Positions 4,201-38,976 of a stretch of DNA of 42,091 bases are shown here, in pieces. Source of the stretch: Acidobacteriota bacterium (GTDB lineage Bacteria; Acidobacteriota; Polarisedimenticolia; J045); NCBI GenBank assembly GCA_024763475.1, contig JANTFM010000002.1, positions 1 through 42,091 on the forward strand, read 5' to 3'. Under the pieces are notes generated by a model. It made no database searches. It saw only the letters and a list, made by a program, of their open reading frames with translations, and was not told where the DNA came from. The stretch's first letter is position 1. The number at the start of each line of letters is the position of its first letter. Made by a program: the position numbers and the translations under genes.

Positions 4201-4521
4201 GCGGAACTTGCGACGATCGAGGACTCGCTGCGGGCACTCCATGTGCGCTACGGCGGTGATTCCATCGTGAGATCTCACAACGAGCCCGACCCTCCCGGCA
4301 TTCGTGAGCGTGTCCTCCGCATCGTGAAGGGTCAGTGGCATGCGAGTTCCGCCCCGACCAAGACCCACGTCGAGAACTACACGATCGCGGCCGGGGAGTT
4401 CGCAGACTTCCTCGTCGATTTGAGAAGGCTGGTCGATGACGAGCTAGCGGCTCTTGAACGACGCCTCGATAGCACGGGAGCACCATGGACACCCGGACGA
4501 ATTCCCATCTGGCAACCCTAG
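1225..4521 (+). CDS. Secreted sortilin/VPS10-like BNR (Asp-box) repeat beta-propeller protein, paralog 1
   Basis: The ORF runs 1189..4521. I prefer the ATG at 1225 (MKRVLVALTVYCLLVSPVFA signal peptide) because AGGAG lies 6 nt upstream. There are at least 9 Asp-box-like S-x-D-x-G-x-[ST]-[WF] repeats (SIDGGESF, TNDGGKTF, SSDGGETW, SRDAGASW, TTDGGASF, SDDRGDSW, SGDGGKNW, SRDRGKTW, TVDGGTKW). It aligns along its full length with the ORF at 24604..27903. Confidence 0.85.
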   Translation: MKRVLVALTVYCLLVSPVFARTKKDRQASQTPAEKVLLSSETFSGIPFRGIGPAITSGRIADIAVDPRDPSIWFVASAAGGVFKTENAGVSFQPVFDDAGSSSIGCVAIAPSNSLVVWVGSGENNSQRSVGYGDGVYKSIDGGESFLNVGLKDSEHIGKIIIDPRDENTVFIAAQGPLWRAGGDRGLYKTNDGGKTFKKVLEISDDTGISDLVMDPRNPDLLYASAYQRRRHVWTLINGGPESAIYKSSDGGETWTKLEKGLPSGDVGRIGLAISPANPDVVYALIEAAENGGFYRSRDAGASWEKRGDYNPTSAQYYQEIIADPLELGRVYAMDTWMQVTTDGGASFTGAGEADKHVDNHALWIDPEDTRHLIAGCDGGVYESFDRATTWRFMTNLPITQFYKVTADNDSPFYNVYAGTQDNATLGGPSRTTSRNGIVNADWFVTVFGDGFKTVVDPEDPNIVYSQWQYGGLVRFDKRSGEIVEIQPQPGKGENALRWNWDSALMISPHSATRLYFGANRLFRSDDRGDSWRPLGGDLTRQIDRNKLKVMGRVWSIDAVAKNDSTSFFGTIVSVSESPLVEGLLYVGTDDGLVQVSGDGGKNWTKYESFPAVPEGSYVNQLQASLHEVDTLYAAFNNHKQGDFTPYLLKSRDRGKTWTSIAGDLPERGSVYSIVEDHVNPKLLFAGTEFGVFFTVDGGTKWVQLSAGIPPVAARELDIQRRENDLVVGSFGRGIFILDDYTPLRQVSEEVLKSDALLFPVKKTLMFMPSAQYGLPGKAFQGSDFYTAPNPPYGAVFTYYLKEGFKTLKAERKEREKAVEDEGGTLEYPSWEDLRLEAAEPDPAVVLTIRDRTGQVIRRLTGPADSGFHRVSWDLRFPPSTPARLDPPPHDPWGPPPSGPMVAPGEYTVSLARLSGGSLLPLAEAQSFETVPLGRATLEAKDKQAVLAFERKTADLQRAVLGAGRVLGELDQRLKLIRRALLDTPAASESMLAELATIEDSLRALHVRYGGDSIVRSHNEPDPPGIRERVLRIVKGQWHASSAPTKTHVENYTIAAGEFADFLVDLRRLVDDELAALERRLDSTGAPWTPGRIPIWQP

Positions 4522-7882: not shown

Positions 7883-8932
7883 CTATCGGAGCGCGGGCTG
7901 CCTGGCTTCATCGGACGGGACCGGGCGGCCTCGCAAGTCCTCGACCAGGCGCATGAGAAGCTTCTCGAAAGTCTCGGCGCTCGTTGAGCGGGGATTCTCG
8001 ATGATCCTGTCCAGCTCCTCGTCCCGGCCCAGAAGAGGCTTGAGTTCGACACTCCAGGCGAGCGGCGCATGGCCTGGAACCGTCGTCTCGGCGAAGCGCC
8101 GGACAAGTTCCTCCAGAATGGCCAGGTCGTGTGTGACCAGTTCCTCCCTCCGGTTGATCTGCATCATCATGGCCGCCAGGGCATTCATGTTCTGCCAGAT
8201 GTGAAGCCCGTCGCTCGGGTCGGCGGTCTCGCCGAGCTCGATCCATTCCTTGAGGCGGGTCTCCAGCAACATCAGCTGGCAGCGATCGCTCAACCGGATC
8301 CGGGTGCGAATGCCCGAGTGAAGCAGTACGGCGACAGCATCTCCTGCGACCTCGAGTCTATTGCGGAGCTCACCCTTCGCCGGATCGCCACCGCGGGAGA
8401 CGGCGACGTGAAACGCCTGAAACGCCCTGCGCAACTCGGCGCTGGCCGAGGCGGAGTTCAAGCCCCCCAGCTGGCAGGGCTGCGCAACGACCTCGCAGGC
8501 TCGGGACTCCAAGGCGATCGCGGCCTTGACGAAGGCTCCCAGTGCCTGGTTGCAGTTGCCGATGATCAAGTTCGAATAGGCAGAGGAGTCCAGGTTGTCG
8601 AGGTTTGTACGCCAATGGGACATTTCCATCTTGGAAATGAAGCAGTGATCCGCTACCAGGCGGATGCGAGCTTCGTCTGAACCCTCGGGTGCTTCCTGAG
8701 AAGGACTCTGCGGACTGGCCCCTTCGTAGGCGAGAAGGAACTGGCCCAGAAGGCCGATCACACAGTCGAGGATGCGCTTGACCCGTGGCAACAGATCCTG
8801 CTTCACGGACTCGCCATCGCGAGCCTCAGGATCTCCGATCTCGAGGGCGATCGCGATGCTCACCAGATCTCGCAGCGCTCCAAGAAGCGCCGGGGTCCTG
8901 AACCTCACCGGTCCGAATCCGTCAGACATCAC
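7883..8932 (-). CDS. Hypothetical protein (349 aa, apparently all-helical), last gene of the sugar/glycosyltransferase operon
   Basis: Long ORF with GC3-biased codons. It starts 33 nt after the stop of the upstream glycosyltransferase on the same strand. I see no recognisable motif. Confidence 0.6.
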   Translation of the reverse strand: MMSDGFGPVRFRTPALLGALRDLVSIAIALEIGDPEARDGESVKQDLLPRVKRILDCVIGLLGQFLLAYEGASPQSPSQEAPEGSDEARIRLVADHCFISKMEMSHWRTNLDNLDSSAYSNLIIGNCNQALGAFVKAAIALESRACEVVAQPCQLGGLNSASASAELRRAFQAFHVAVSRGGDPAKGELRNRLEVAGDAVAVLLHSGIRTRIRLSDRCQLMLLETRLKEWIELGETADPSDGLHIWQNMNALAAMMMQINRREELVTHDLAILEELVRRFAETTVPGHAPLAWSVELKPLLGRDEELDRIIENPRSTSAETFEKLLMRLVEDLRGRPVPSDEARQPALR

Positions 8933-8965
8933 TGTGTCCCGCGCGCAGCAACGAGCGTCCGTTCT

Positions 8966-11900
8966 TCACCCGCATGACACGCGCTCCGCTGCATTCTTAC
9001 GAAGATCCACATGTTTCTCCCCCACCCTTGTCCGCAGTTCCGCGAGCGCCTCGATCGTATCGTCTGTCGCGCGAAGGCCCCCGGCGTTGAGAACAGCCTG
9101 CCCCGGAAGCAGAAGCGATGGACGAACCCGATCATCCCCAAACACAAGAACGAGACGATCCGACTCGCTTTCCGAGCAGCGGACGAGACGATCGATGCAA
9201 CCATCATCCACCGTCATGGTCTCCGGCATGAGAATGACATGCCGGTGGTGCCAGGTTTCACTCTCCTCCAGGATCCTCGAGAGCAGCGGAAGCGGAGGCG
9301 AGCTTTGGACACCGAGTCGATTGTCCGGAATCGTATCGTCGAGCTTTGCAATCCGGACCCTGAGGTCAAGATTTGCCGCGGGGAAAGCGCGCAACGCTCC
9401 CAGGCAGCTCCTCAGCGCGTCTTCGTCCCGGCCTGTACGATAGACGATCACCAACGGATCAACCGCTTTCGAGGCCGGAAAGATCCCGTCCTGCTGCCAG
9501 CGCAGACGCCGCTCGGCCCGCCACCGGTAGAGCTCCTGGATGTGCTCGATCTCTCGCCGCTTGCGCTCCGGGTCCCGTCGCTCAGAGCTGGTCTCCGAGT
9601 AGTAGTAGAGCCCGAGGGTCTCGTCGATGTGAAGCATCGTCTCGGTCTCGCTGATACGCAGCCAGAACTCCCAGTCACCGGCGGATTCGATGCTCGCGTC
9701 GAGATAGCCATAGGTCTCGTGTACCGAGCGTCTCCACATCGGCTGTGGCCCCATGTGGCAACGATCGAGCAAGGTCCCCTCATGGTAGTCAAGGCCTTGC
9801 ACGTGTCCCGCACGGCGGAAATCGCCAAAGGTCTCGTTCTCGCCAACGGTCACGAAAATATCAGCGTAAACGAGTGCGACATCCGGCCGCGCATCGAGAA
9901 CGGCTGCAAGACGCTCGAGAAAGTCATGCCGATGCCGGTCGTCCGTGTTGGCCAGCGTGAGGTAGCGACCCCGGGACTGGCGGATCGCGCGACTGATCGC
10001 GGCGTGCGAGCTTTCCCGCTCTTTCGTCCGGATGTAGACGATATTCTCGTACTGATTCTGAAACGCCTCCACGATCGCGCCTTCGCCCTCGGGAGACCCA
10101 CTGTCCACGACAACGATTTCCAATTGATCTGCAAGCGACTGGCTCTCGAGATCCTCGAGCAAGCCACGCATGAAGCGCTCGGACTTGTAGCTGCTGACGA
10201 TCGCGGAAACGAGGTACTCCCGCTGTTGATGACCGTCAGGAATGCGAACCAGCTCCACCTCCGCGTCCTGAACCCCTTCCTCAAAGGGTCTCCACGGCGC
10301 CGGGCGAGAACCCGCACGAGGAATCCGCAACCAGCTCGAAGCAAGCGCCGCCCGGGCATCCTCCGCCCAGAAGCCGCCATGGTGTTTTCTCGGCAAGCGC
10401 TCGACTTTCTTCCGGATCGCTTCGAGGTCCGCGACGTTGCGCCCTTCTTCGTGCACCAGCCCTGCGAGCAGCCGATGCGCCTCGCCGAGCAAGATCGAAT
10501 CCCGGCAAAGCAGTTCCAATATCGAAGCAGCTCGTTGGAGCTCCGCGTCTCTGGAGCTCGCCGCAAGCTTACGAGCGAGTTCGAGGGCGTAGAACGGGAA
10601 CTCGGGGTCCTGTTCCACCGCGCGTTCAAGGGGCACGCGTTTGTTCGTCATGCGGCCTTGGTAAAAGTTCAGGGATGCGAGGATCAATCCTGTGAGCCGA
10701 CCGCTCTTCGTCTCCGTATTGCGCGGATCGGACGACGCGCGATTCCTGAGAGCGAGGACCTTGACGACCTCGTCGAAGTACGCACGGTAGTTGAAGGCCG
10801 TACTGAAAAAGTCCCACGGCAGGACGTCGTCCAGTGGATCAACCACCCAGCTCTCGGCCGGCCTGGCCAAGGTCTCCTCGAGCAGCGAGAGGGCTGCGCG
10901 TTGCTCCGCCACCTTACCGTAGTGTATGGCCGCCCGGATCGTATTGAAGCGGAGCACGAGATTGTCCGGGAAGGTCTTCAGCGCCAGATGACAGAGAGAG
11001 AAGATCTGCTTCAAGTAGTCCTGGTTGATCTCGACATGGCCCGCAGCGCGGACGACGGAAACGTATTCGAGCAGCATCTCCCGCGTGATATCGATGAAGT
11101 CCTTGGGAGCGCATCCCTCGCGCAGCGTCTCCTGGAAGCGCGAGAAGTTCTTCCGGCGCAGCTCCTTCATCTCCTCGTGCCCGCCGCCGCTTTGCATCCA
11201 GCCCTTCCAGATCACCGAACGCTTCTGCGAGAGGATCTCTGGCAACTCCTCTCTTCGCGGAGTCCTCGGGCGCGCGGCAAGAAAGGTGAGATAGCGGAAG
11301 TACTCTGCCGCCACGCGCCGCATCGCGAACTCGCGCCGGATCCGCTTCGCGCCGTGCCGTGCCTGCGCTTCCACCACGGGCCAGTTCTCGACGATCCTGC
11401 GCAGGCAGCCCGAAAGTGCACCACGATCCGGGGAATACGTGAAGACTCCCTCATCCTCTCCCGCGTAGAGCGTCAGCACGGAGCCTTCCTGCACCGCGAC
11501 CGCGGACCCCATGGCGAGGGCTTCCAGGCCCCGCGTCGGCATCGCTCCCGAGTGACGAATGTAGGTAAAGGCGGTCTTGGAAGAGCTGACCAATCGCAGG
11601 TAGTCGTCCTTCGAGGCGAAGCCGTCCAGGAAGTAGATCTTCAACGCGTCGTCTTCGAGCAACTCGTGCAACAACCGGGCCTTGTCCGGATGATAGGGGT
11701 GCGTGACGGACCCTGACTGGAAGAGGTCGATCTCTCTCTCTCCCTTCGGAACCGGCGGCAGACGATCCGGCAGGCCGAAAGTCTTCGGGAAGGTCGTCAC
11801 CGGCACGCCGGTCAGGCTTCGCGCCTCCTGCCATTCGGTGGGATCGGTGACGAGTAACTCGTCAAAGACCTGGAGCCAGGGGTAGACGGCCTGGACGTGC

Positions 11901-12454
11901 AGGTCGAAGTCCGCCGTGTGTGCCAGAAGTGGGCAGGCAAGGTCACGGATGTCGGTCGGGATGAGCTGCCACTCGACCATCTCGGCAATCACGAGGTCCG
12001 GAGGAGCGTCCCGTTCGTAGCACTCGTGAATGCTGGCATAGGGGCGGTAGGCTCGCCCGTGCCCGGAGAAGCTCATGTTCTCCACGTCGAACTGCCGGTC
12101 CGCCCGTTGAACGGCGAGCAGGTCGTGGGGGGCGATTCCACCGTCAGGCAGGAACGCCAGCACGCGAATTTTCTCGCGGGAAATCAGCTGGAGCAGTCGT
12201 GCCGCATGCTCTCCCTCAACCGCGGCCAAGGCCTTCCTCGCCCGTTGCTTCCGCCCACCGATCCACAACGCCACCCCTTCGTAGAAGCGTGCCTCGTTGC
12301 CCTCGAAACGGCTCAGTCCCGCGAGGGCCTCCTCGACACGTCCGACGAGCCCGAGCGCCGCGTAGCTCTGCCAGCACTCGCCGTTGCCCGCGAGAGCAAC
12401 GCCCGCATAGTTGCCCGCGTCGAAGAGCTCCCGTAGCTCGCGAGTCGATCGCAT
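8966..12454 (-). CDS. Multidomain glycosyltransferase (1162 aa): N-terminal GT-B/CgeB-like domain, central TPR-like helical repeats, GT2 (GT-A) domain, C-terminal degenerate GT-A-like domain
   Basis: GT2 signature: VSAIVSSYKSERFMRGLLEDLESQ ... IVVVDSGSPEG ... YLTLANTDDRH. GT-B C-terminal signature: SGAMPTRGLEALAMGSAVAV. The helical TPR-like stretch covers roughly aa 420-700. The start overlaps the stop of the upstream rSAM gene by 1 nt (cTGATG). Confidence 0.8.
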   Translation of the reverse strand: MRSTRELRELFDAGNYAGVALAGNGECWQSYAALGLVGRVEEALAGLSRFEGNEARFYEGVALWIGGRKQRARKALAAVEGEHAARLLQLISREKIRVLAFLPDGGIAPHDLLAVQRADRQFDVENMSFSGHGRAYRPYASIHECYERDAPPDLVIAEMVEWQLIPTDIRDLACPLLAHTADFDLHVQAVYPWLQVFDELLVTDPTEWQEARSLTGVPVTTFPKTFGLPDRLPPVPKGEREIDLFQSGSVTHPYHPDKARLLHELLEDDALKIYFLDGFASKDDYLRLVSSSKTAFTYIRHSGAMPTRGLEALAMGSAVAVQEGSVLTLYAGEDEGVFTYSPDRGALSGCLRRIVENWPVVEAQARHGAKRIRREFAMRRVAAEYFRYLTFLAARPRTPRREELPEILSQKRSVIWKGWMQSGGGHEEMKELRRKNFSRFQETLREGCAPKDFIDITREMLLEYVSVVRAAGHVEINQDYLKQIFSLCHLALKTFPDNLVLRFNTIRAAIHYGKVAEQRAALSLLEETLARPAESWVVDPLDDVLPWDFFSTAFNYRAYFDEVVKVLALRNRASSDPRNTETKSGRLTGLILASLNFYQGRMTNKRVPLERAVEQDPEFPFYALELARKLAASSRDAELQRAASILELLCRDSILLGEAHRLLAGLVHEEGRNVADLEAIRKKVERLPRKHHGGFWAEDARAALASSWLRIPRAGSRPAPWRPFEEGVQDAEVELVRIPDGHQQREYLVSAIVSSYKSERFMRGLLEDLESQSLADQLEIVVVDSGSPEGEGAIVEAFQNQYENIVYIRTKERESSHAAISRAIRQSRGRYLTLANTDDRHRHDFLERLAAVLDARPDVALVYADIFVTVGENETFGDFRRAGHVQGLDYHEGTLLDRCHMGPQPMWRRSVHETYGYLDASIESAGDWEFWLRISETETMLHIDETLGLYYYSETSSERRDPERKRREIEHIQELYRWRAERRLRWQQDGIFPASKAVDPLVIVYRTGRDEDALRSCLGALRAFPAANLDLRVRIAKLDDTIPDNRLGVQSSPPLPLLSRILEESETWHHRHVILMPETMTVDDGCIDRLVRCSESESDRLVLVFGDDRVRPSLLLPGQAVLNAGGLRATDDTIEALAELRTRVGEKHVDLRKNAAERVSCG

Positions 12455-13983
12455 CAGATCGTACCCGCCGGCACGAGGTGGTCCCTCTCGAGTCTCCGCG
12501 CGGTCATCGACTCGATGTGAGCCCGTGTCTCGCTCCCGAACTTCGATCCGACCATCTCAAGGTAGGGAGCTGCGCTGAAGTAGCGGGTGAACGCTTGGTC
12601 GCGGAAGCGAAGAACCTCTTCACCCCGAATATGCTTGGTGTCGAGTGGCAGGGCATCCCGGGAGAACTGTGAGTAGCCGCCCCAAGACGCAGGCAGTCGA
12701 GCCCCGCTCGTCAGGGCCTGCTGGTAGAGTGCCGATCCCGGGTACGCCATCGCACAGTAGAAGTTCGCCATCTCGCAGTTGAGTTCGATCGCGAGATCGA
12801 GGGTTTGCTGCATGCTTGCGAGATCGTCTTCGGGTAGTCCAAAGATGTAGTTGCCGATGACATGGATACCCGCCGCACGGATCTCTTCGATCAGCTTGAT
12901 CAGCCGCTCGGGCCGGAACCCCTTGTTGACGTCGTCCCGCACGCGCTCGCTGGCGGCCTCGATTCCCAGAGCAAGCCAGCGCACTCCCGCCTGCCGCAGC
13001 TTGGGCAGCATGCCTTCCTTGATGGAGTCGACGCGCGCGTAGGCCCAGATGTTCAGGTCGTAGCCCCGCTCGATGATGCCGTCGCAGATCCCGTCGACGT
13101 GCTTCCTGTGCATCACGAAGAGCTCGTCGGCAAACTTGATGTGCCTCACTCCGTAGTGCTCGACCAACTTGCGAATCTCACTCAGAACCAGCGCAGGAGA
13201 CCACTTGCGGTAGCTGTTGACCTTGGCTGGCATGCCGAGGGCCTGCTCGCCCGACTTGAAGGGGGCCTGGATGCAACAGAAGCTGCAGCGATGCGGGCAA
13301 CCAAGAGTCGTATAGATCGACGCGTAGGGGCTGCGCTCACCGATCGTCTCGAAGGCATGCCAGTTGTGAGCCCGGTACTGATCGACCGGAACCAGGTCCC
13401 AGGCGATACCAGGCATCTCCCCGTTGAGATCCTGCACGAGCGGTGCGGGCCTGGTGCGGGTGATTCCGGAGCCGTCCATGAAGCAGATGCCGCGCACGCG
13501 CCCGAGCTCGGGAGACGCGCTCTCCCGGTAGGCCTGGACCAGATCGGCCAGTGTGTAGCATCCCTCACCGGTGCAGACGAAGTCGACGTCTTCCTCGCGC
13601 AGGGTGCGTTCCGGAAGCGCCGCCACATGCCCACCGAGGAGCAGGAGCTTCTGCTCGGGAGTCTCGCTCTTGATCGCGCTGCAGATGGCCCCCGCAGACG
13701 GCATGACCTGGGTCGATGCGGAAGGGTTGTGACCGTAGACGACAACAGCGGTGATCAGCGGATTGAGGTCTTCAATCCTCTCAGCGACCTCGCCGGGTCC
13801 CCATCCCATCAGGTTCGCATCGAGCACCTCCACACTGTATCCACACCTGCGGATGAAGGTCGCTATCAGTCCGGGCCAGACCGGATTCTCGATCGCCGCG
13901 AGATCCTTGCCGAGACCCTGATAGGCGTGTTTGCGCCCTCCGGGATTGACCAACACGACGTCGACACGTGGACGGCGCGTCAT
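12454..13983 (-). CDS. B12-binding-domain radical SAM enzyme (class B rSAM; probable methyltransferase or related)
   Basis: I chose the ATG at 13983 (MTRRPRVDVVLVNPGG...), which lies 1 nt after the stop of the upstream gene. The N-terminal Rossmann-like B12-binding region is followed by LGCPHRCSFCC (CxxxCxxC). The longer ORF-track start at 14235 overlaps the aminotransferase-like gene and is Arg/Ser-rich. Confidence 0.85.
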   Translation of the reverse strand: MTRRPRVDVVLVNPGGRKHAYQGLGKDLAAIENPVWPGLIATFIRRCGYSVEVLDANLMGWGPGEVAERIEDLNPLITAVVVYGHNPSASTQVMPSAGAICSAIKSETPEQKLLLLGGHVAALPERTLREEDVDFVCTGEGCYTLADLVQAYRESASPELGRVRGICFMDGSGITRTRPAPLVQDLNGEMPGIAWDLVPVDQYRAHNWHAFETIGERSPYASIYTTLGCPHRCSFCCIQAPFKSGEQALGMPAKVNSYRKWSPALVLSEIRKLVEHYGVRHIKFADELFVMHRKHVDGICDGIIERGYDLNIWAYARVDSIKEGMLPKLRQAGVRWLALGIEAASERVRDDVNKGFRPERLIKLIEEIRAAGIHVIGNYIFGLPEDDLASMQQTLDLAIELNCEMANFYCAMAYPGSALYQQALTSGARLPASWGGYSQFSRDALPLDTKHIRGEEVLRFRDQAFTRYFSAAPYLEMVGSKFGSETRAHIESMTARRLERDHLVPAGTI

Positions 13984-13984
13984 C

Positions 13985-15166
13985 TCAACGCACCGCCAGG
14001 ACGACGTCGCAGATCGACTGGATGTCCTCGGGTGAGATCGATGGGTTGTTCGGCAGGTGAAAGCTCGTCGTGTGGATCCGATCCGCCATCGGCACGACGG
14101 CCGGCTCGTAGCGCTTGGTCCAGAACGGCTGCCGCGACATGTTCCCGCCACCAAGCGGCCGGGTCTCGACGCCGAACTCCTCGAGGGCTTGCGCCACCCG
14201 GGCCCGATGCTCTTCGGAGCTGGCCAGCGCAGCAAAGGAAATGCTACAGATCTCGGCCCTGTGGTTGCTCTGGCAGTGGAAGTGCTCGGCCGCCTCGAAG
14301 TTCTGCTGGTAGATGCGGTGGTTCTCCTTGCGCCGTGCGATGACCTCCTCGACCTTCTTCAGCTGTCCCAGGCCCAGCTTTGCTCCGAGATCCGTTGGCC
14401 GTACGTTGAAACCCGGGTGGTAGAACGCGAAGCGGCGATTGAAGTCGAGGACGCCGAATTCCTCCACCAGGTGCTGTTCCTTCTCCGGCGACAGGTCCTT
14501 GGCCCAGCCATGGGAACGAATCTGCAGCAGGATGTCCTGTAGCTCTTCATCCGAGCTGCACACCATCCCCCCCTCGATCGTTGAGAGGTGGTGGCCGAAG
14601 TAGAAGGAGAACGTTGACAGGTCGCCGAAGGTGCCGACGAGCTTCCCGTCATAGCGTGAACCCGTCGCAGCGCAGGCGTCCTCCATCAGCGCGAAACCGT
14701 AGCGCCCCTTGAGCGCGAGAAGTTCCTCCATCTTGTGCGGGACCCCGAGGACATGGACGACGATGACGGCTCCGGGATCGTGCTCCTGGCAGAGCCTTTC
14801 GAGATGGTCCAGGTCGAGGCCGAAGGTATCCGGGTCACCGTCACACATGATGGGCTCGAAACCGAGCTGGATCGCGGGGGCAACCGTCGTCGCCCAGGAG
14901 ATCGCGGGAACGATCACCTTACGATTCTTCAGGCGGCCGGAGACGAGCAGCGCGTAGTACATCATCAGGTTGGCGGAAGACCCCGAGTTCACATAGAGCG
15001 CGTACTCTGTTCCCAACCACCGGGACCATTCGGTCTCGAAGCTCTTCGTGAGAGGCCCCTGGGTCAGCCAGGGATCCGTCTCCAACCAGGAGATCAGTTC
15101 GGCGATGTCCTTCCTGTCGATGGTCTCCTGGGCCAGCAGAAAGCGCTTCTTCTCGCTCGTCGTCAT
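13985..15166 (-). CDS. DegT/DnrJ/EryC1/StrS-family PLP/PMP enzyme with Lys-to-His substitution (ColD/E1-like nucleotide-sugar 3-dehydratase candidate)
   Basis: Family-typical N-terminus and the motif STFSFYFGHHLSTIEGGM. In the canonical SFHxxKxxTxGEGG motif the Schiff-base Lys aligns with the first His here. GGGAG RBS 6 nt upstream of the ATG at 15166. Confidence 0.8.
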   Translation of the reverse strand: MTTSEKKRFLLAQETIDRKDIAELISWLETDPWLTQGPLTKSFETEWSRWLGTEYALYVNSGSSANLMMYYALLVSGRLKNRKVIVPAISWATTVAPAIQLGFEPIMCDGDPDTFGLDLDHLERLCQEHDPGAVIVVHVLGVPHKMEELLALKGRYGFALMEDACAATGSRYDGKLVGTFGDLSTFSFYFGHHLSTIEGGMVCSSDEELQDILLQIRSHGWAKDLSPEKEQHLVEEFGVLDFNRRFAFYHPGFNVRPTDLGAKLGLGQLKKVEEVIARRKENHRIYQQNFEAAEHFHCQSNHRAEICSISFAALASSEEHRARVAQALEEFGVETRPLGGGNMSRQPFWTKRYEPAVVPMADRIHTTSFHLPNNPSISPEDIQSICDVVLAVR

Positions 15167-15188
15167 TCGTGGCTCCCTGTTCTCTTGT

Positions 15189-16286
15189 TCATGGTGCGAC
15201 CGTCTCCTCGAGGGTCGGCAGGTCCGGGATCTCGATGGCTTGACCCTGGCGGACCAGGCGGCGCGCGGCCTCGATGATTTCCTCTTTGCCGGCGTAGAAG
15301 GCGTTCTCGAGCGTGTAGCCCGCGGGTGTCGGCATATCAGGAGCGGTCACTCTCTCGATCGGCGCCCTGAGGGACGCGAATCCCTTCTCGGCCACCAACG
15401 CACTGATCTCCGCCGTGATGCCGCCGGTCTTCCAACCGTGATCCGCAACGATCAGCCGTCCGGTGCGGGCCACCGACTCCAGGATGATCTCTTCATCGAG
15501 TGGCCTGAGCGATCGAAGATCAACGAGTTCCGCGTCGATTCCTTCCTCCGCAAGGCACGCGGCAGCGGCGTAGGCCTCGTGCACCATCTGTGAGATCGTC
15601 ACGATCGACAGGTCTTTTCCGCTGCGGCGTACGACGCCTTTTCCGATCGGGATCGTGTACTGCTTCTCCGGCACAGGGCCGATCAGCTTGAAGTTGAATC
15701 GATGCTCGAGAATCAGGACAGGGTTCTTGTCCTTGATCGCCGCGAGCATCAGACCCTTCGCGTCATAGCCGGTGCTCGGCATGATCAGCTTGAGGCCTGG
15801 GAAGTGCATGAAGGTTCCCTGCAGCGCCTGGGAATGCTGTGCAGCTGATCCCCAGCCCCTCCCAATGCAGGACCAGATCACCAGTGGCACCTTCACCGCT
15901 CCGGCGGTCATGAAGGACCACTTCGCCGCGTGGTTGGCCAGTTGATCCAAGGCGAGCAGAAGGAAGTCGGGCCGGTTGTGCAGGTAGATCGGCCGCATGC
16001 CCGCGATCGCGGAACCCACGGCGATACCCATCAGGCCGTTCTCGGCCAGGGGCGTATCGAAGACTCTCTCCTTGCCGTGGGTCTCGAGCAGGCCCCTGCA
16101 TGTGCCAAACATCCCACCGGGATCGTTGACTCCCTGACCCATCAGGTAGACCGCCGTGTCGATGCCGAGGGCCTGGTCGAAAGACTCCCGTATCGCCTCA
16201 GCGTGGGTGATCCTCCGGGCGGCAGGATCTTCGCGCTCAAGAAAGTCGGGCTCGTGCGTTTCCGGCGTCACTTTGGACCAGGGCAT
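15189..16286 (-). CDS. TPP-dependent 2-oxoacid dehydrogenase E1 beta-like (transketolase-like) subunit
   Basis: Pyrimidine-binding and C-terminal transketolase-like domains (ERVFDTPLAENGLMGIAVGSAIAGMRPI). ATG at 16286 with a GAGGA RBS, 2 nt after the alpha-subunit stop. The ORF-track start at 16301 is a TTG. Confidence 0.88.
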   Translation of the reverse strand: MPWSKVTPETHEPDFLEREDPAARRITHAEAIRESFDQALGIDTAVYLMGQGVNDPGGMFGTCRGLLETHGKERVFDTPLAENGLMGIAVGSAIAGMRPIYLHNRPDFLLLALDQLANHAAKWSFMTAGAVKVPLVIWSCIGRGWGSAAQHSQALQGTFMHFPGLKLIMPSTGYDAKGLMLAAIKDKNPVLILEHRFNFKLIGPVPEKQYTIPIGKGVVRRSGKDLSIVTISQMVHEAYAAAACLAEEGIDAELVDLRSLRPLDEEIILESVARTGRLIVADHGWKTGGITAEISALVAEKGFASLRAPIERVTAPDMPTPAGYTLENAFYAGKEEIIEAARRLVRQGQAIEIPDLPTLEETVAP

Positions 16287-16288
16287 GG

Positions 16289-17263
16289 TCAATCCTCGCA
16301 ATACACGTAGCGCGTGAGGTCTTCATCCAACGGCAAGGGGCTCTTCACGGCAGCACGGAACGCCTCGTCGATCTCGGCCTCTATCGCCGCTTCCATCGCC
16401 TCCAGACCCTTCTGGTCCAGCAGTCCGCGGGCGAGCAGATCGGCTCGCAGGCCATGGACGGGATCATGGGTCTCCCAGCGCTCGATCTCCGCGGGATCCC
16501 GGTACTTTCCCGTGCGATCCACACCGGATCCGGCATGTTCGCGAACCCGATAGGTCTTGCACTCGATCAGGCTCGGACCGCCTCCGCTGCGCGCCAGCGC
16601 GATCGCGGTCGCAGCCGCGGCGTTCACGGCGTCGAGCGAGTTACCGTCCACCGTCTGGGTCCACATCTTGTTCGGCAGCACCTGGTGGAAGATCAGCTCC
16701 TGGGCCTGGCGCTCACGGGTCGTGGTACACACGGAGTAGCCGTTGTTCTCGTAGATGTAGACAACGGGAAGGCGCTTGAGCATGGCGAAGTTCACGCTCT
16801 CGTAGAGCACGCCCTCGTCGGCGGCTCCGTCGCCGAAGAAAACGACGCTGACCCGCGCCAAACCCCGCATCTTGTACGCCATGGCCATGCCCGTGCCGAT
16901 CGGCACGCCGCCGCCGACAATCGACGAGGATCCCATGTGGCCGACGGCGGTATCGACGAGATGCATCGATCCCCCGCGCCCCTTCGTGCAGCCGCTTTCC
17001 TTGCAGTGCAGCTCGGCGATCAGCTCGTTCAGGCCCCCACCCTTGGCGAGGTAGTGGCCGTGGCTGCGATGGTTGCTCGATACGCTGTCATCGTTTGTCA
17101 GATGTGCGCACACACCGACAGAGATCGCTTCCTGGCCGATGCAGAGATGGACCGGCGTCTTCATCCGGTCTTCGTGGTAGAGCGACTCGATGCGCAATTC
17201 GACGTTGCGAAGGCGGAGCATTCGCCGAAAAAGCTCGATGCGCCGCGCGGAGCTGAGTGTCAT
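16289..17263 (-). CDS. TPP-dependent 2-oxoacid dehydrogenase E1 alpha-like subunit
   Basis: TPP-binding motif GDG-x26-NN (GDGAADEGVLYESVNFAMLKRLPVVYIYENN) on an E1-alpha-like N-terminus. The start overlaps the upstream stop (ATGA). Confidence 0.88.
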   Translation of the reverse strand: MTLSSARRIELFRRMLRLRNVELRIESLYHEDRMKTPVHLCIGQEAISVGVCAHLTNDDSVSSNHRSHGHYLAKGGGLNELIAELHCKESGCTKGRGGSMHLVDTAVGHMGSSSIVGGGVPIGTGMAMAYKMRGLARVSVVFFGDGAADEGVLYESVNFAMLKRLPVVYIYENNGYSVCTTTRERQAQELIFHQVLPNKMWTQTVDGNSLDAVNAAAATAIALARSGGGPSLIECKTYRVREHAGSGVDRTGKYRDPAEIERWETHDPVHGLRADLLARGLLDQKGLEAMEAAIEAEIDEAFRAAVKSPLPLDEDLTRYVYCED

Positions 17264-18225
17264 CCGTACACCTCCGCGTGTTCGGTCCGGCCCGCAGATT
17301 CCGGGGAGAAGCGCTCAAGATAGTCTCTGTAGCTCTCCGCAAGCGCCTCGCGCAGCGTGAACTCCGCCTGCCAGCCGAGGGCGGCGAGGGGGGCCGCATC
17401 GAGAACCTTGACCGGCATGCCGTCGGGAAGCTCGGGATCGAAGCTGAGTTCCCCGTCGTAGGCGACAACCTCCCGGATCGTCTCGGCCAAGGCGGAGATC
17501 GTGATATCGCCGCCACAGCCGATATTGATCGGCTCCGCACCCTCGTAGTCGCTCATGATCGCGATCGAGGCTGCGGCGGCATCTTCGGAATAGATGAAAT
17601 CGCGGCGTGGACGGCCGGTGCCCCAGAGCTCGACCTTTGGCTCTCGGGCGATTTTCGCCTCGTGGATCTTCCGAATCATCGCAGGAATGACGTGCGAATT
17701 CTCGAGGCTGAAGTCCTCCCCCGGGCCGAAGGGATTCGACGGAATGGCACAGAGAAAGTCCGAGCCATACTGCGCTCGATAGGCTTCGCATAGTTTGATG
17801 CCCGCCACCTTCGCGACCGCGTAGGCCTCGTTACTGGGCTCGAGAGGCCCTCGCAGCAGGTACTCGGGAAAGAGAGGCTGGGGGCAGTCGCGGGGATAGG
17901 AACAGGATGACGCGAGATACAGCAGGCGTCGAACACCATAGCGGTGCGAGGCATCGATCACCTGCGTGGCCACCAGCAGGTTGTCGAGCATCAGTTCCGC
18001 AGGCTGGGACAAGTTTGCGCGGATGCCCCCTGACCTGCCCGCCGCGAGGAACACGTACTCCGGCAGGAACCAATCGAAGATCGAATCGACCAGGGCCTGG
18101 CCACGATGGCCGTCGCCTCCAACGACATGCACCTTCGTATAGCCCTCGAGCGCCAGGCGGCGGGCGAGCGCGGCACCCAGGAGAGTGCGCTGTTCGAAGA
18201 CGAGAATCCTGGAGTCCTTGTTCAC
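17260..18225 (-). CDS. GDP-L-fucose synthase / GDP-colitose synthase (ColC)-like SDR epimerase-reductase with a degenerate N-terminal glycine motif
   Basis: SSCSYP, YAVAKVAGIKLCEAY (YxxxK) and NSHVIPAMI closely match the GDP-fucose synthase catalytic motifs. The N-terminal GxxGxxG is replaced by EQRTLLG. Confidence 0.8.
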   Translation of the reverse strand: MNKDSRILVFEQRTLLGAALARRLALEGYTKVHVVGGDGHRGQALVDSIFDWFLPEYVFLAAGRSGGIRANLSQPAELMLDNLLVATQVIDASHRYGVRRLLYLASSCSYPRDCPQPLFPEYLLRGPLEPSNEAYAVAKVAGIKLCEAYRAQYGSDFLCAIPSNPFGPGEDFSLENSHVIPAMIRKIHEAKIAREPKVELWGTGRPRRDFIYSEDAAAASIAIMSDYEGAEPINIGCGGDITISALAETIREVVAYDGELSFDPELPDGMPVKVLDAAPLAALGWQAEFTLREALAESYRDYLERFSPESAGRTEHAEVYG

Positions 18226-19292
18226 CGTTGGACCTCCGTCGTGATCAGCTCGCGAAAACTGTCGATCTGCTGGTGTGAGCGAATCTCTTCCGCTTCGGAG
18301 TAGTCTTGCTCATGGTCGAGGAAGATGATCTGGCTGCCCGAGAACTCGAGCTTGAAGGGCACGTGGATCATGTGGCCCAGAGCGCTGCGGATCTGAAGGT
18401 GGCGATCCGGCGGCGCGAAGAGCAGCAGGAAGCCGCCACCCCCCGCGCCCGTTAGCTTCCCGCCAATGGCACCGTGGGCCAGGGCCCGCTCGTAGAGCCC
18501 GTCGATCTCCGGACTGCTGACGAGAGGGCTGAGACTGCGCTTGGCCTGCCATGCCTCGTGGAGCAGCTCCCCGAAGGCATTCAGGTCTTCCCGGCTGGTC
18601 AGGACGGTGATGGCTTCTTTCACCAGGTCAGACATGATGCGCAACTGCCTCTTGCGCGAGTCGAGCTTGTCGACAAAGGAGTCCGCGACGTTGGCCGCCG
18701 TGCGCACGATGCCCGTGTAGAAGAGCATCAGGTGCGACGAAAACTCTTCGGCGCGCGCCTTGTCGATGGTCACCGGCTGAACCAGGATCTCGCCATTGCG
18801 CTGGAAGCTAATGTGGTTGAGGCCCCCGTGGGCGGCGGACACCTGATCCTGGGATCCCACGGTCTCACCGATCAGGTCCTGCTCGATGTGGATCGCCTCT
18901 TCGGCGAGTTGTTTCTTGCTCGGCATCGATCCCTCGAGGCCGTAAAGCGCGTGAAGCAATCCGACAGTGAACGAAGAACTCGAGCCCATGCCGCTGCGCG
19001 CCGGCAGATCTCCGTCATGGTGGATCTCAACGCCGCGATTGAAGCGCCGGAAGCGCAGCACCTCCCGTACCGAAGGATGATCGATCTCGCTCGGATCCTG
19101 CGCGTTCTCGATCCTCGAGTACACGACGCGGTAGCGGTGATCGAAGAAGGGCGGCAGGAAACGACAGGTCAAGTAGCAGTACTTGTCGATACTCGTTGCG
19201 AGCACGCTTCCCCCGTGTTTGCGATACCACGCGGGATAGTCCGTACCGCCGCCGAGAAAGGAAACCCTGAAGGGTGTTCTACTGATGATCAT
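18222..19292 (-). CDS. hddA: GHMP-family sugar kinase, D-glycero-alpha-D-manno-heptose 7-phosphate kinase (HddA)-like
   Basis: N-terminus MIISRTPFRVSFLGGGTDYP and GHMP motif PARSGMGSSSSF. It sits beside gmhB and a heptose-1-P guanylyltransferase-like gene, with 4-nt overlaps on both sides. Confidence 0.8.
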   Translation of the reverse strand: MIISRTPFRVSFLGGGTDYPAWYRKHGGSVLATSIDKYCYLTCRFLPPFFDHRYRVVYSRIENAQDPSEIDHPSVREVLRFRRFNRGVEIHHDGDLPARSGMGSSSSFTVGLLHALYGLEGSMPSKKQLAEEAIHIEQDLIGETVGSQDQVSAAHGGLNHISFQRNGEILVQPVTIDKARAEEFSSHLMLFYTGIVRTAANVADSFVDKLDSRKRQLRIMSDLVKEAITVLTSREDLNAFGELLHEAWQAKRSLSPLVSSPEIDGLYERALAHGAIGGKLTGAGGGGFLLLFAPPDRHLQIRSALGHMIHVPFKLEFSGSQIIFLDHEQDYSEAEEIRSHQQIDSFRELITTEVQR

Positions 19293-19903
19293 TCGATACC
19301 CGTCCCGTCGTGAGCGTTGCCTGCCATGCCAGCCTGGCCCGCAGCTCCCTGACCTGCTCTCCCCATCTCCTGGCGGATCATTTCGAACGCTTCGGGGAGT
19401 CCATCGGCGACCAGATGCGGCGTGAGCCGCATCGTCTTCTCCTCCTTGCTTCCGTAACCACTTCGCACGAGCACGGTTCGCAGGCCCGCCCCCAGGCCGA
19501 CGCCGATGTCACACGCCTTGTCCCCGATCATGTAGCTGGCGCACGGGTCGAGTCCGAGCTCCTCCTGCGCCTGGCGAATCATGCCTAACGCCGGCTTGCG
19601 GCAGCTGCAGCCCTCCTCGGGCAGATGGGGGCAGTGATAGATCCCGTCGAGGAAGACTCCCGACTCCGCGAGTTCGTCCTGGAGCCGGCCATGGATCGCG
19701 TCGAGGGTCTTCACGTCGAAGAGGCCGCGAGCAAGGCCGGACTGGTTGGTCAAGAGAACCAAGCCGAAACCCAGGGCGTGGAACGCGCGGAGCGCCGCCG
19801 GAACACCGGGCAGAATCGCCAGGCCCGCCGGATCGGAGAGATAGTGCCTCTCCTCGATCACCGTGCCATCCCTGTCGAGGACGATGAAGGCGCGGCGACT
19901 CAC
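19289..19903 (-). CDS. gmhB: D,D-heptose 1,7-bisphosphate phosphatase (HAD family)
   Basis: HAD motif I VLDRDGT. GmhB-type zinc motif CPHLPEEGCSCRKP. GDKxxD motif (IGDKACD). Confidence 0.88.
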   Translation of the reverse strand: MSRRAFIVLDRDGTVIEERHYLSDPAGLAILPGVPAALRAFHALGFGLVLLTNQSGLARGLFDVKTLDAIHGRLQDELAESGVFLDGIYHCPHLPEEGCSCRKPALGMIRQAQEELGLDPCASYMIGDKACDIGVGLGAGLRTVLVRSGYGSKEEKTMRLTPHLVADGLPEAFEMIRQEMGRAGQGAAGQAGMAGNAHDGTGIE

Positions 19904-20682
19904 GCGAAGACCTCCTCTCGTGCTTCTGCGAGAAAGCTCTCCGCACGGGCATAGGACTCCGGCGTGCCGATATCCAGGAAGGCACCGGTGGCGCGGTGGC
20001 CGCAGAGCCGCCCCTCACCAGCCCAGAGCGGGAAGACGTCGCGCTCGAGAGACATCACCTGGCCAACAGCTATCTCGAGAGCCACCGCCCGCTCGATCAG
20101 GTAGATCCCGGCATTGATCCAGCCCGGACCTCCCGTGGCGCCCTTCTCCTCGAATCGCTCGATCTGCTGATTCACACCCAGTTCCACCCTGCCAAAGCGC
20201 CGGGTATCGTCCAGGTGGGCGAGGGCGAGGGACGTCGCCGCCCCGGACTCGAGATGGGCGGCAGCGAACGCATCGAGCTCCGTGTCAAAGCAGGAGTCCC
20301 CGTTGAGCACGATCAGGGTCTCACTGCGCGCTTCATCGAGTGCAAGGCGCAGCGCGCCCCCGGTTCCGAGCAATTCCTCTTCCCTGGAGTAGGCGATCTC
20401 CAGCCTGCCGGGAAGACCGCGGCCGTGATGCTCTCGGCCAAAGTGATCCATGACCATCTCTCCCAGGTAGCCGACGCAGAGCACCGCGCGCTGCACCCCC
20501 GCGCCCTGGAGGCGATCGAGGAGATAGGAGAGGAAGGGTCTACCGGAGACCGGTGCGAGGACCTTGGGCCGATCGGCCACAGCACGGCGCAGCCGGGTTC
20601 CGAGTCCCCCGGCCAGGACCACCGCGGTTGCCGTGGTCAGGAGCCGTCGCCCACCGGCCAGCCAGCTGTCATGAACCGACAA
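19900..20682 (-). CDS. hddC: Sugar-1-phosphate nucleotidyltransferase, D-glycero-alpha-D-manno-heptose 1-phosphate guanylyltransferase (HddC)-like
   Basis: VVLAGGLGTRLRRAVADRPKVLAPVSGRPFLSYLL nucleotidyltransferase signature. About 260 aa with no left-handed beta-helix domain. Context with hddA and gmhB. The exact start is uncertain: it overlaps the upstream gene by 14 nt. Confidence 0.78.
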   Translation of the reverse strand: MSVHDSWLAGGRRLLTTATAVVLAGGLGTRLRRAVADRPKVLAPVSGRPFLSYLLDRLQGAGVQRAVLCVGYLGEMVMDHFGREHHGRGLPGRLEIAYSREEELLGTGGALRLALDEARSETLIVLNGDSCFDTELDAFAAAHLESGAATSLALAHLDDTRRFGRVELGVNQQIERFEEKGATGGPGWINAGIYLIERAVALEIAVGQVMSLERDVFPLWAGEGRLCGHRATGAFLDIGTPESYARAESFLAEAREEVFA

Positions 20683-21676
20683 CGACCGTCTCCTTCCCCG
20701 TCACCGGCTGCGAGGGGCCGAGCCAGCGACCGGAGAGTTCCGTAACGTTCTTGAAGGGCGTGCGGCCGATGCAACGATAGCCCTTGAGTAGTTCCCTGAT
20801 GCCGTCGTCGAGGCCGCGCTTCGCCTCGAAGCCGCTCTCGCGGAGACGCCGGTTGGAGACGATGTAGTTGCGCTGATCGGGGTCCTTGCCATAGTTCGCA
20901 TAGTGGATGTAGAAGTTCGGCACGAACTCCTTGATCTTGTCCGCCAGCTCCGCCTTCGAGAGATTCGCCTCGTCGAGGCCGACGTTGAAGGCGCGGCCGA
21001 CCATCTTCGACGAATTCTCGATGGCGTGGAGGAAACAATCCGCGACATCGCGCACGTGGACGTAGTTGCGCTTGAAGTCCTTCTCGAAGATGACGATCGT
21101 GCCATCCGTGATCGCCGCGTAGACGAAGTGATTCACGAGGAGATCGAGGCGCATCCGGGGCGACATGCCGAAGACGGTGGCCAGGCGGAAGGTGATCGCG
21201 TCCCCCGCATCGAGGAGCGCCTGCTCGGCTTCCACCTTCGCTTTGCCGTAAAGCGAGATGGGCTCGAGGGGCGTCTCCTCGGTACAGTAGAGCTCACCGC
21301 TCTGGGTCCCGTAGCCGCTGTTCGTGGTCGGGTAGATCACGAGCTGGCCCTTCTGCGCCAGCGTATGCGAGAGGATCACCGCGTCACGGTTGGTGGAGAG
21401 CGTGCCCCAGGGATCCCGCTCGCAGGCAGGGGCCCCGACGATCGCCGCCAGCGGAACGATCACATCGTGCCCGGCGATCAGGTCCTTCATCAGCCGTTCA
21501 TCCCTGGCATCGCCGCAGACGATGTCGAAGTCCGGGTTCGCCGCCAGGTGAAAGAGGCTCTCGCGCCCGATGAGCAGGTTGTCGAGAGCGGTGACCTTGT
21601 GTCCCGCCTCGAGCAGGCGGGCAGCGAGGGTCGATCCAAGATATCCAGCGCCACCGGTGATCAGAACGCGTTGCAT
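20669..21676 (-). CDS. Extended SDR, NAD-dependent epimerase/dehydratase family (first gene of the operon)
   Basis: ATG at 21676 (MQRVLITGGAGYLGS) with a GGAGGA RBS about 10 nt upstream. YGKAK (YxxxK) is present. The usual S-T-D-E-V-Y-G dehydratase segment reads TTNSGYG. The ORF-track start at 21805 adds a non-homologous leader. Confidence 0.85.
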   Translation of the reverse strand: MQRVLITGGAGYLGSTLAARLLEAGHKVTALDNLLIGRESLFHLAANPDFDIVCGDARDERLMKDLIAGHDVIVPLAAIVGAPACERDPWGTLSTNRDAVILSHTLAQKGQLVIYPTTNSGYGTQSGELYCTEETPLEPISLYGKAKVEAEQALLDAGDAITFRLATVFGMSPRMRLDLLVNHFVYAAITDGTIVIFEKDFKRNYVHVRDVADCFLHAIENSSKMVGRAFNVGLDEANLSKAELADKIKEFVPNFYIHYANYGKDPDQRNYIVSNRRLRESGFEAKRGLDDGIRELLKGYRCIGRTPFKNVTELSGRWLGPSQPVTGKETVVVGS

Positions 21677-21895
21677 CGTCAGCAATCCTCCCCCCGGGAG
21701 CGCGAACACTCGTCCGAACATCCCGGAGCATGTGCGAGGGGCATGGGATAGCCCTGATGAGAATCTGGGTTCCGAGAACGGCAGCGTCAACGCACGCACA
21801 CACACAGTGGAGATCGGGCATCATCGGCCGCGAGGCCCCGGCGAAACGTCTCGATCTCGCCGGCATCCCACGGCCGAGCACAGAGGAGAAAGACG

Positions 21896-35343: not shown

Positions 35344-35406
35344 CTGGAGTGGATCTCCTCGGCGATCTGCTATGGCTTAGCCGGGACAGTTCAGCTGGAT
35401 TCCGGG

Positions 35407-38966
<3,560 letters not shown>

Positions 38967-38976
38967 GGGCTCTCCC

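Follow-up and report, generated by a model that had tools for sequence, protein, structure and literature searches.

A widespread gene cassette in an Acidobacteriota bacterium predicted to build a GDP-linked, heptose-derived sugar

The genes described here lie on the minus strand of contig JANTFM010000002.1 (assembly GCA_024763475.1) from an Acidobacteriota bacterium, within a stretch of 42,091 nucleotides, positions 1 to 42,091 of that contig, hereafter referred to as the window. Ten of them, extending from 8966 to 21676, form a single operon, and we consider it fairly probable that their products make and transfer an unusual higher sugar linked to GDP, which would come from a heptose, be deoxygenated at C3, and be extended by two carbons. 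The operon is not a one-off but belongs to a cassette with many copies among bacteria. The chemistry is nucleotide-sugar tailoring in which each step has a known family precedent, and thus the category is an established one. The notable features are the combination of enzymes, its wide distribution, and the fact that no characterized example was found in the literature searched.

The operon and its distribution

Provided in Table 1 are the genes of the operon, the adjoining eleventh gene, and associated features.

Table 1. Genes and features of the operon region. Assignments are predictions from the listed evidence. AF2, AlphaFold2; GT, glycosyltransferase; ORF, open reading frame; PLP and PMP, pyridoxal and pyridoxamine 5'-phosphate; SAM, S-adenosylmethionine; SDR, short-chain dehydrogenase/reductase; ThDP, thiamin diphosphate.
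Feature	Position	Strand	Basis
Divergent intergenic region, presumed promoter region	21677-21895		219 bp between the SDR gene and the plus-strand flavoprotein gene
SDR, Cj1427-like predicted GDP-heptose C4-dehydrogenase	20669-21676	-	PDB sequence match
Sugar-1-phosphate nucleotidyltransferase, HddC/ManC-like, predicted GDP-heptose forming	19900-20682	-	Pfam NTP_transferase
GmhB-like HAD-IIIA heptose-1,7-bisphosphate 7-phosphatase	19289-19903	-	NCBIfam
GHMP kinase, HddA/WcbL-like, predicted heptose-7-phosphate 1-kinase	18222-19292	-	NCBIfam, PDB
GDP-L-fucose synthase/ColC-like epimerase-reductase	17260-18225	-	NCBIfam, PDB
ThDP-dependent E1 alpha-like subunit	16289-17263	-	Pfam E1_dh, 226 bits; GDG...NN ThDP motif
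ThDP-dependent E1 beta-like subunit	15189-16286	-	Pfam Transket_pyr and Transketolase_C
ColD/E1-type PLP/PMP-dependent sugar 3-dehydratase, Lys to His	13985-15166	-	PDB matches
B12-binding-domain radical SAM enzyme, large uncharacterized family	12454-13983	-	Pfam
1162-residue cytoplasmic GT	8966-12454	-	Pfam GT2, AF2 model, Foldseek
GT: helical repeat	aa 1-92		AF2
GT: alpha/beta module, PF13524-like	aa 96-400		AF2
GT: helical repeat	aa 426-690		AF2
GT: GT-A domain	aa 733-985		AF2
GT: low-confidence tail	aa 990-1162		AF2
Conserved all-alpha protein, function unknown	7883-8932	-	no profile match

The eleven coding sequences from 7883 to 21676 are consecutive and tightly packed, as judged from the ORF listing and from profile alignments that support their starts, and all of the overlaps and small gaps given in a preliminary description of this DNA are present. 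Four junctions are 4-nt start/stop overlaps (17260-17263, 18222-18225, 19289-19292, and 19900-19903). There is, in addition, a 1-nt overlap at 12454, and the gaps include those of 1 nt at 13984, 2 nt at 16287-16288, 22 nt at 15167-15188, and 33 nt at 8933-8965. The start of the nucleotidyltransferase gene can be placed either at a TTG codon at 20682, which is preceded by a good Shine-Dalgarno sequence and overlaps the stop of the SDR gene by 14 nt, or at a GTG codon at 20622, which leaves a gap of 46 nt. The earlier statement that no gap exceeds 35 nt is correct with the first of these starts and fails with the second. GGAG/GAGG-like Shine-Dalgarno sequences are located at eight of the eleven starts; they are weak at those of the kinase, radical SAM, and GT genes, and none is found at that of the last gene. 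The GC content of the operon is uniform with that of its flanks. No sigma-70-like promoter was identified at the operon ends, terminator-like sites there did not exceed the expectation from shuffled sequence, and neither an Rfam family (such as a cobalamin riboswitch) nor a tRNA was detected in the window. The preliminary description assigned all eleven genes to one operon. Ten of them hold together, but the eleventh is probably a neighbor unrelated to the pathway: in the closest relatives (loci L001 and L002), a gene for a methyl-accepting chemotaxis protein (a chemoreceptor) separates the homologue of the last gene from that of the GT, and for this reason the last gene is not counted here.

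The distribution of the cassette was evaluated with 49 loci having at least 8 kb on either side of the radical SAM gene (the full-flank loci), and gene order was read by tblastn, with the proteins of the window as queries and the fetched loci as targets. The recurrent order is SDR, nucleotidyltransferase, (GmhB), (GmhA), kinase, Fcl-like enzyme, E1 alpha, E1 beta, His-containing DegT enzyme, and radical SAM enzyme. It was found in more than 12 phyla, from Cyanobacteria to Planctomycetota, and its carriers include Cyanobacteria, Nitrospirota, Planctomycetota (the anammox organism Kuenenia among them), Omnitrophota, Acidobacteriota, Myxococcota, Verrucomicrobiota, Azospirillum, and Solidesulfovibrio. 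Within the full-flank loci, the kinase is encoded in 45, a ThDP enzyme in 43 (E1 type in 37, split transketolase in 7), the His-containing DegT enzyme in 39, the Cj1427-like SDR in 36, the nucleotidyltransferase in 31, the Fcl-like enzyme in 29, a small GT2 enzyme in 20, and a GmhA-type SIS protein in 13. The amino acid sequences of the 45 kinases are 52-68% identical to that of the window kinase.

Dozens of unrelated genomes share this order, and chance therefore does not account for the arrangement. The tailoring genes are strongly co-conserved with the activation genes, and the neighborhood analysis contradicts the chance fusion that the preliminary description had itself named as fatal to its proposal. 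Indeed, the notion that two unrelated gene sets simply lie side by side, or that the E1 pair is the remnant of a 2-oxoacid dehydrogenase, is scarcely credible. A gene for a pyridine-nucleotide disulfide oxidoreductase is positioned divergently upstream and would be in keeping with such a remnant, but the gene order is the same across many phyla, no E2 component of a 2-oxoacid dehydrogenase complex is present beside the E1 pair, and the flavoprotein (21896-23446, plus strand) was not found as a shared family beside the cassette among the other loci clustered. The flavoprotein was also considered as the E3 component (dihydrolipoyl, or lipoamide, dehydrogenase) of a pyruvate dehydrogenase, and this was ruled out by its membership, at 780 bits, in the PRK06370.1-3 subfamily of FAD oxidoreductases.

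The cassette occurs in several forms. On plasmid pDMC1 of Solidesulfovibrio magneticus RS-1, the order is two GT2 genes, radical SAM, NUDIX, kinase, E1 alpha, E1 beta, Fcl-like, DegT, SDR, nucleotidyltransferase, a lipid-carrier-dependent GT-C, L-2-hydroxyglutarate oxidase, and an SIS protein. In Nitrospira-type cassettes (L003:11530-14332 and those of related Nitrospirota), a split transketolase and a D-2-hydroxyacid dehydrogenase are found instead of the E1 pair, which suggests a two-carbon unit derived from hydroxypyruvate (glycolyl) rather than acetyl. Many cassettes encode an ArnC/PgfS-like polyprenyl-phosphate GT2 enzyme, and sometimes a GT-C enzyme, such that the sugar would travel via a lipid carrier in those organisms; the window contains the 1162-residue soluble GT instead. 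In Azospirillum lipoferum 4B, all of the parts reside on plasmid p6 in two sub-clusters separated by ~20 kb and near GT41 and tetratricopeptide repeat (TPR) genes, both a hint of protein glycosylation. "Minimal" Azospirillum clusters were considered as proof that the radical SAM enzyme does not depend on the E1 pair or the DegT enzyme, and this was rejected because the plasmid in question also carries the missing genes, at a distance of ~20 kb. Beside the E1/DegT/SDR sub-cluster of A. lipoferum 4B p6 (L109:3745-6010) are genes for MtnA and methylthioadenosine phosphorylase, which could dispose of the 5'-deoxyadenosine produced by the radical SAM enzyme. An Omnitrophota locus (L005, 3065-20092) carries, together with the cassette, a second set of genes encoding an HddC-GmhB fusion, an RmlC-like epimerase, and another GHMP kinase.

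Enzymes of the operon

Sequence searches of Pfam, NCBIfam, and the PDB bore out all of the domain families named in the preliminary description, and the B12-binding radical SAM enzyme, the E1 alpha/beta pair, the Lys-to-His DegT enzyme, and the GDP-fucose synthase/ColC-like enzyme are all present as proposed. The scores cited below may be compared with NCBIfam equivalog cut-offs of 600 bits for HddA, 300 for HddC, 178 for NF006506, 500 for Fcl, 393.85 for TIGR03182, and 321 for NF006667. On the basis of sequence, the kinase, phosphatase, and nucleotidyltransferase are nearest to the HddA/GmhB/HddC heptose module, as had been suggested, although they fall below these values. HddA is the best NCBIfam match for the kinase, at 140 bits. 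The HddA model is narrow, with both kinases of locus L005 scoring 134 bits, and the best structurally characterized relatives of the window kinase, at ~131 bits, are WcbL (PDB 4USK/4USM) and a putative HddA (4N3O). The GmhB-like phosphatase reaches 161.8 bits with NF006506 and passes TIGR01656 and TIGR01662, which are histidinol-phosphatase-domain/HAD-IIIA models. For the nucleotidyltransferase, the mannose-1-phosphate guanylyltransferase model (165 bits) outscores that of HddC (139 bits), with both under cut-off.

The protein encoded by the first gene was previously termed an extended SDR, which is correct as to family but too generic. It matches PDB entries 6VO6/6VO8 with 351 bits, 52% identity, and a gapless alignment over 309 residues, and the YxxxK motif is kept. 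We take these entries to be Campylobacter jejuni Cj1427, an alpha-ketoglutarate-recycling GDP-heptose C4-dehydrogenase, and the window SDR is predicted specifically to be an enzyme of this type. With such an SDR, a 4,6-dehydratase would not be required and the sugar would probably retain its 6-hydroxyl group. Given that the by-product of Cj1427 is L-2-hydroxyglutarate, the occurrence of L-2-hydroxyglutarate oxidase (LhgO) in the cassettes fits this prediction. LhgO-like genes are found in 9 of the 49 full-flank loci, and the equivalog cut-off for L-2-hydroxyglutarate oxidase is passed in two homologous cassettes, namely that of S. magneticus pDMC1 (L088:27447-28649) and one from Nitrospirales (L009:3494-4750). 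No LhgO gene is present in the window.

The best PDB match for the DegT enzyme is ColD (2GMS, E = 1.2e-57), followed by the CDP-sugar 3-dehydrase E1, and because ColD outscores E1 (AscC), the ColD subtype is favored. In the motif SFYFGHHLSTIEGG, the first histidine aligns with His188 of ColD, which lies in the ColD motif SFYSHHIATMEGG. A histidine rather than a lysine occupies the catalytic position in nearly all of the DegT enzymes encoded adjacent to the radical SAM gene in the fetched loci, even in those with only ~35% identity to the window enzyme. No gene for an E3-like reductase was seen in the operon. The Fcl-like protein scores 338 bits with the NCBIfam Fcl model and 248-266 bits with the GDP-fucose synthases of the PDB. 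The catalytic triad and epimerization pair of E. coli GDP-fucose synthase, Ser107, Cys109, Tyr136, Lys140, and His179, are conserved in it at all five positions.

The E1 pair resembles the E1 component of pyruvate dehydrogenase, but the E1 alpha-like subunit scores 304 bits with TIGR03182 and the E1 beta-like subunit 313 bits with NF006667, both of which are below cut-off. Together they constitute a two-subunit ThDP enzyme inside a deoxysugar operon and beside a gene for 3-deoxygenation, and the gene context is that of the AviB1/AviB2 type. On the E1 beta side, a metagenome scan that was nearly uninformative as a reciprocal search, its peptide patterns being too specific, revealed just two close relatives, both in this gene context. 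One is 67% identical and belongs to a whole cassette (L093), and the other is 75% identical and lies on a 2.4-kb contig with the DegT gene adjoining (L092).

The radical SAM enzyme displays the class B architecture, namely an N-terminal B12-binding domain (PF02310, 41.2 bits against a cut-off of 32.1) and a CX3CX2C core (PF04055, 65.5 bits) whose cysteines, C229, C233, and C236, are invariant. Cobalamin binding is predicted from this architecture, and methyl transfer is a candidate reaction. Its best NCBIfam matches are to HpnJ (155 bits) and BchE (140 bits), both far under their cut-offs, and its best PDB match is to AprD4 (72.8 bits). None of the class B methylase families comes near its cut-off with this protein. 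AprD4, OxsB, BchE, and HpnJ have the same architecture and are not known to be methylases. The window protein shares the B12-type domain and the CX3CX2C motif with GenK and Fom3 (C-methylation), AprD4, HpnJ, calditol synthase (cyclopentane formation), and OxsB, but it scores far under the cut-offs of these families and belongs to a large family of its own. That family comprises more than 7,700 clusters at 90% identity (E ≤ 1e-20), with relatives in at least 582 species-representative genomes and identities of 54-66% across phyla from Cyanobacteria to Elusimicrobia, and no characterized member of it was found.

Proposed pathway and its alternatives

The pathway that we favor begins with heptose-7-phosphate, which would be supplied by a GmhA encoded elsewhere. 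The HddA-like kinase would phosphorylate it at C1, the GmhB-like phosphatase would remove the phosphate from C7, and GDP-heptose would then be formed, as homology and published enzymology both support. The Cj1427-like SDR most likely oxidizes C4, with alpha-ketoglutarate recycling the bound NADH and with the 6-hydroxyl group kept, and the His-containing DegT enzyme would remove the 3-hydroxyl group to yield GDP-3-deoxy-4-keto-heptose. Beyond this point the proposed order is more conjectural. The E1 pair may decarboxylate pyruvate and transfer the acyl-anion equivalent of two carbons so formed to one of the carbonyls of the sugar, most likely the C4 ketone, and the Fcl/ColC-like enzyme may epimerize the sugar and/or reduce whichever carbonyl is left. 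A radical step on the sugar may be performed by the B12-domain radical SAM enzyme; in light of its neighbors, which include HpnJ and BchE (ring chemistry), AprD4 (diol dehydration), and the class B methylases, candidate reactions are C-methylation, diol dehydration, or a C-C ring closure. The 1162-residue GT could then transfer the sugar to an acceptor in the cytoplasm. A GDP-linked, 3-deoxygenated, C-branched and/or C-methylated heptose had been put forward in the preliminary description. Such a product is plausible and its 3-deoxygenation is supported by homology, whereas C-branching and C-methylation are features that we infer.

Precedents exist for each segment of this route. With C. jejuni enzymes in vitro, a C4-dehydrogenase and a 3-dehydratase produced GDP-3-deoxy-4-keto-heptose, which was described as novel. 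The capsular GDP-heptose pathways of C. jejuni employ the same GmhA/HddA/GmhB/HddC, Cj1427, HS:5 C3-dehydratase, and Fcl-like C4-reductase families, but there the natural partner of the 3-dehydratase is a 4,6-dehydratase, the pairing with Cj1427 has been made only in vitro, and neither a ThDP pair nor a B12-type radical SAM enzyme is involved. Colitose biosynthesis, which proceeds from GDP-mannose via Gmd, ColD, and ColC, likewise utilizes a ColD-like His-containing DegT enzyme followed by an Fcl homologue acting on GDP-linked sugars; the difference here is that the sugar would be a heptose, the 4-keto group would arise by the action of a dehydrogenase with no 6-deoxygenation, and ThDP and radical SAM steps are added. 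For two-carbon branching at C4, precedents are provided by yersiniose (E1/E3, YerE, and YerF), AviB1/AviB2, and Pau11/Pau12. The AlmDI/DII proteins of aldgarose biosynthesis are a further example. For antibiotic sugars with an acetyl branch at C4, E1-like pairs have been put forward as the enzymes that attach it (PMC4753412). Those C4-branched systems share with the present one 3-deoxygenation, ThDP-dependent acetyl transfer from pyruvate to a 4-ketone, reduction, and, in AviB1/AviB2, a two-subunit organization, the likeness to AviB1/AviB2 being one of architecture. They differ in that they act on CDP- or TDP-linked hexoses or pentoses, with no heptose and no radical SAM enzyme. The earlier view that the gene set fits no described pathway still stands, with no characterized cluster of this composition found in the literature searched; the coverage of subscription journals was limited, and thus an existing description is possible.

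Several observations weigh against the favored pathway. None of the operon proteins reaches an NCBIfam equivalog cut-off, and consequently the assigned substrates rest on family resemblance and context. The NADPH-binding glycine motif of the window Fcl-like protein (18175-18225, minus strand) is degenerate, reading VFEQRTLLG rather than GxxGxxG, where E. coli Fcl has AGHRGMVG and most of the cassette orthologues have AGGxTLIG; cofactor binding may thus be altered in the window protein. Reduction of C4 by the Fcl-like enzyme would preclude its use as the acceptor in the ThDP reaction, and hence the late steps may take place in more than one order and at more than one site. No gene for GmhA, the SIS-type sedoheptulose-7-phosphate isomerase, was detected among the window ORFs scanned. 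By the thresholds used, a ThDP enzyme is missing within 10 kb of the radical SAM gene in 6 of the 49 full-flank loci and in M. moscoviense. Those six include A. argentinense, whose locus contains a transketolase pair by annotation, and A. lipoferum 4B, in which the plasmid with the radical SAM gene also bears an E1 pair at a distance of ~20 kb. Finally, only plain heptose has been reported for the S-layer glycans of Kuenenia.

The low scores of the activation enzymes bear on a second possibility, in which the trio acts on another ketose-derived sugar, such as an octose, and the ThDP pair functions early, lengthening a ketose phosphate in the manner of a transketolase. In lincomycin biosynthesis, the GmhA-, HddA-, GmhB-, and HddC-like proteins LmbN, LmbP, LmbK, and LmbO make GDP-octose. 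The kinase, nucleotidyltransferase, and SIS proteins score far below the heptose equivalog cut-offs, and some cassettes employ the split transketolase in place of the E1 pair, as this explanation would have it. We nevertheless regard it as very unlikely. The SDR is 52% identical to the protein of 6VO6, taken to be the GDP-heptose-specific Cj1427, the GmhB-like score is near its cut-off, and GDP-heptose has been measured by metabolomics in Kuenenia, which carries the cassette (L032). Furthermore, because 2-oxo acids are decarboxylated by enzymes of the E1 type, the products would be 1-deoxy-ketoses, and these an SIS isomerase could not convert.

The route might also end earlier, at GDP-3-deoxy-heptose, a seven-carbon analogue of colitose for which the SDR, the His-containing DegT enzyme, and the Fcl/ColC-like enzyme would suffice. 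The radical SAM enzyme and the ThDP pair would then act elsewhere, for example on the C6-C7 diol (an AprD4-like dehydration followed by two-carbon extension) or on the transferred glycan. The succession of ColD by ColC is the logic of colitose biosynthesis, and the catalytic residues of the Fcl-like enzyme are intact. There are loci without a nearby ThDP enzyme, but in 43 of the 49 loci one is encoded within 10 kb. The closest relative of known structure to the radical SAM enzyme is indeed a sugar diol dehydratase, AprD4, yet that 72.8-bit match covers only the radical SAM core, and HpnJ and BchE score higher in NCBIfam. Fusions of homologues of the N-terminal module of the GT to other B12-type radical SAM enzymes speak for this reading. 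On balance, we view a colitose analogue as the endpoint as unlikely.

The two-carbon-extended product can be specified further by analogy, although the proposal is speculative and we deem it distinctly unlikely, namely that the cassette makes a GDP-linked carbocyclic nine-carbon sugar of the caryose type. Caryose is a 4,8-cyclo-3,9-dideoxy-nonose, and its biosynthesis has been stated to be unknown (PMC9092360). Starting from GDP-3-deoxy-4-keto-heptose with its 6-hydroxyl group, the E1 pair would add acetyl to C4 to give a tertiary alcohol and the future C8 and C9, the HpnJ/BchE-like radical SAM enzyme would abstract a hydrogen from C7 and close the C7-C8 bond to form a cyclopentane ring, and the Fcl-like enzyme would set the remaining stereocenters. 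The structure of caryose would thus be accounted for as a 3-deoxy-heptose carrying a pyruvate-derived two-carbon unit on C4 and a C7-C8 ring, with one role for each tailoring enzyme encoded here. A search for a link to Burkholderia (Trinickia) caryophylli, in which the Azospirillum orthologue of the radical SAM enzyme served as the query, provided none, the best 120 matches all being alphaproteobacterial.

Glycosyl transfer, surroundings, and significance

The preliminary description referred to a multi-GT protein with TPRs. There is one confident GT-A domain in the 1162-residue GT, corresponding to a single Pfam GT2 domain (residues 750-862, E = 4.8e-20), and the candidate for a second GT is the PF13524-like module; PF13524 was detected in homologues but not in the window protein itself. 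Likewise, the AF2 model contains helical-repeat regions, but the TPR profile matches are weak (E = 0.01-0.1). The model has a mean predicted local distance difference test (pLDDT) score of 81, with high values in the GT-A domain. Foldseek searches with it retrieved K4CP, SpsA, and the GDP-fucose-using WrtF (E of ~1e-10 to 1e-11), all aligned on that domain. The N-terminal ~650 residues of the GT also exist as a widespread stand-alone protein family of ~780 residues, and in nine of the fetched loci this module is encoded within 10 kb of the radical SAM gene. In some homologues of the module (P0251 and P0268), the same polypeptide includes a B12-domain radical SAM enzyme, but one from a different family. 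These fusions were considered as a Rosetta-stone link and rejected, given that the fused enzymes are just 25-27% identical to that of the cassette. In agreement with the preliminary description, the ORFs scanned in the window include neither Wzx/Wzy, an ABC exporter, nor a lipid-carrier priming transferase.

The last gene, formerly described as an orphan, belongs instead to a large family with 710 representatives at E ≤ 1e-3 and a typical length of ~340 residues (349 in the window). Its invariant residues are R168, R213, D216, R217, R262, D269, and G302. No matches were obtained in Pfam, NCBIfam, or the PDB, nor in Pfam and PDB searches with a profile of the family, and the single-sequence AF2 model, with a pLDDT of 50, was too poor for a fold search. 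The protein probably lies outside the sugar pathway.

Two BNR/Sortilin-Vps10-repeat proteins of ~1100 residues, probably secreted or located at the cell surface, are encoded on either side of the operon (1189-4521 and 24604-27903, both plus strand). The genes gyrA, gyrB, recF, dnaN, and dnaA occupy 32839-41713 on the minus strand, and the window thus adjoins the region of the chromosomal replication origin. A radical SAM ORF at 85-1041 (plus strand), unrelated to the operon, is similar to SPASM-type peptide maturases in their N-terminal part (PapB-like, 64 bits). Opposite the operon genes are very long antisense ORFs, such as that of 901 residues at 9011-11716 (plus strand), which we attribute to the high GC content.

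If the favored pathway is correct, an as yet undescribed higher sugar made from heptose is produced by much of the environmental bacterial world. Its chemistry would join an alpha-ketoglutarate-recycling dehydrogenase and a PLP-dependent 3-dehydratase with a ThDP carboligase of two subunits and a B12-type radical SAM enzyme. The question can be addressed in culturable, sequenced carriers, namely S. magneticus RS-1 with its plasmid pDMC1 and Azospirillum with its plasmids, and work on the C. jejuni homologues has already established the substrates and the first two of the tailoring reactions. Assignment of the reaction catalyzed by the radical SAM enzyme would annotate, at once, a very large family consisting of thousands of clusters. 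The pathway could also explain how carbocyclic or branched lipopolysaccharide sugars such as caryose arise. Were the product indeed of the caryose type, the biosynthesis of caryose would be solved, and carbocyclic sugars would be common surface components in more than a dozen phyla.

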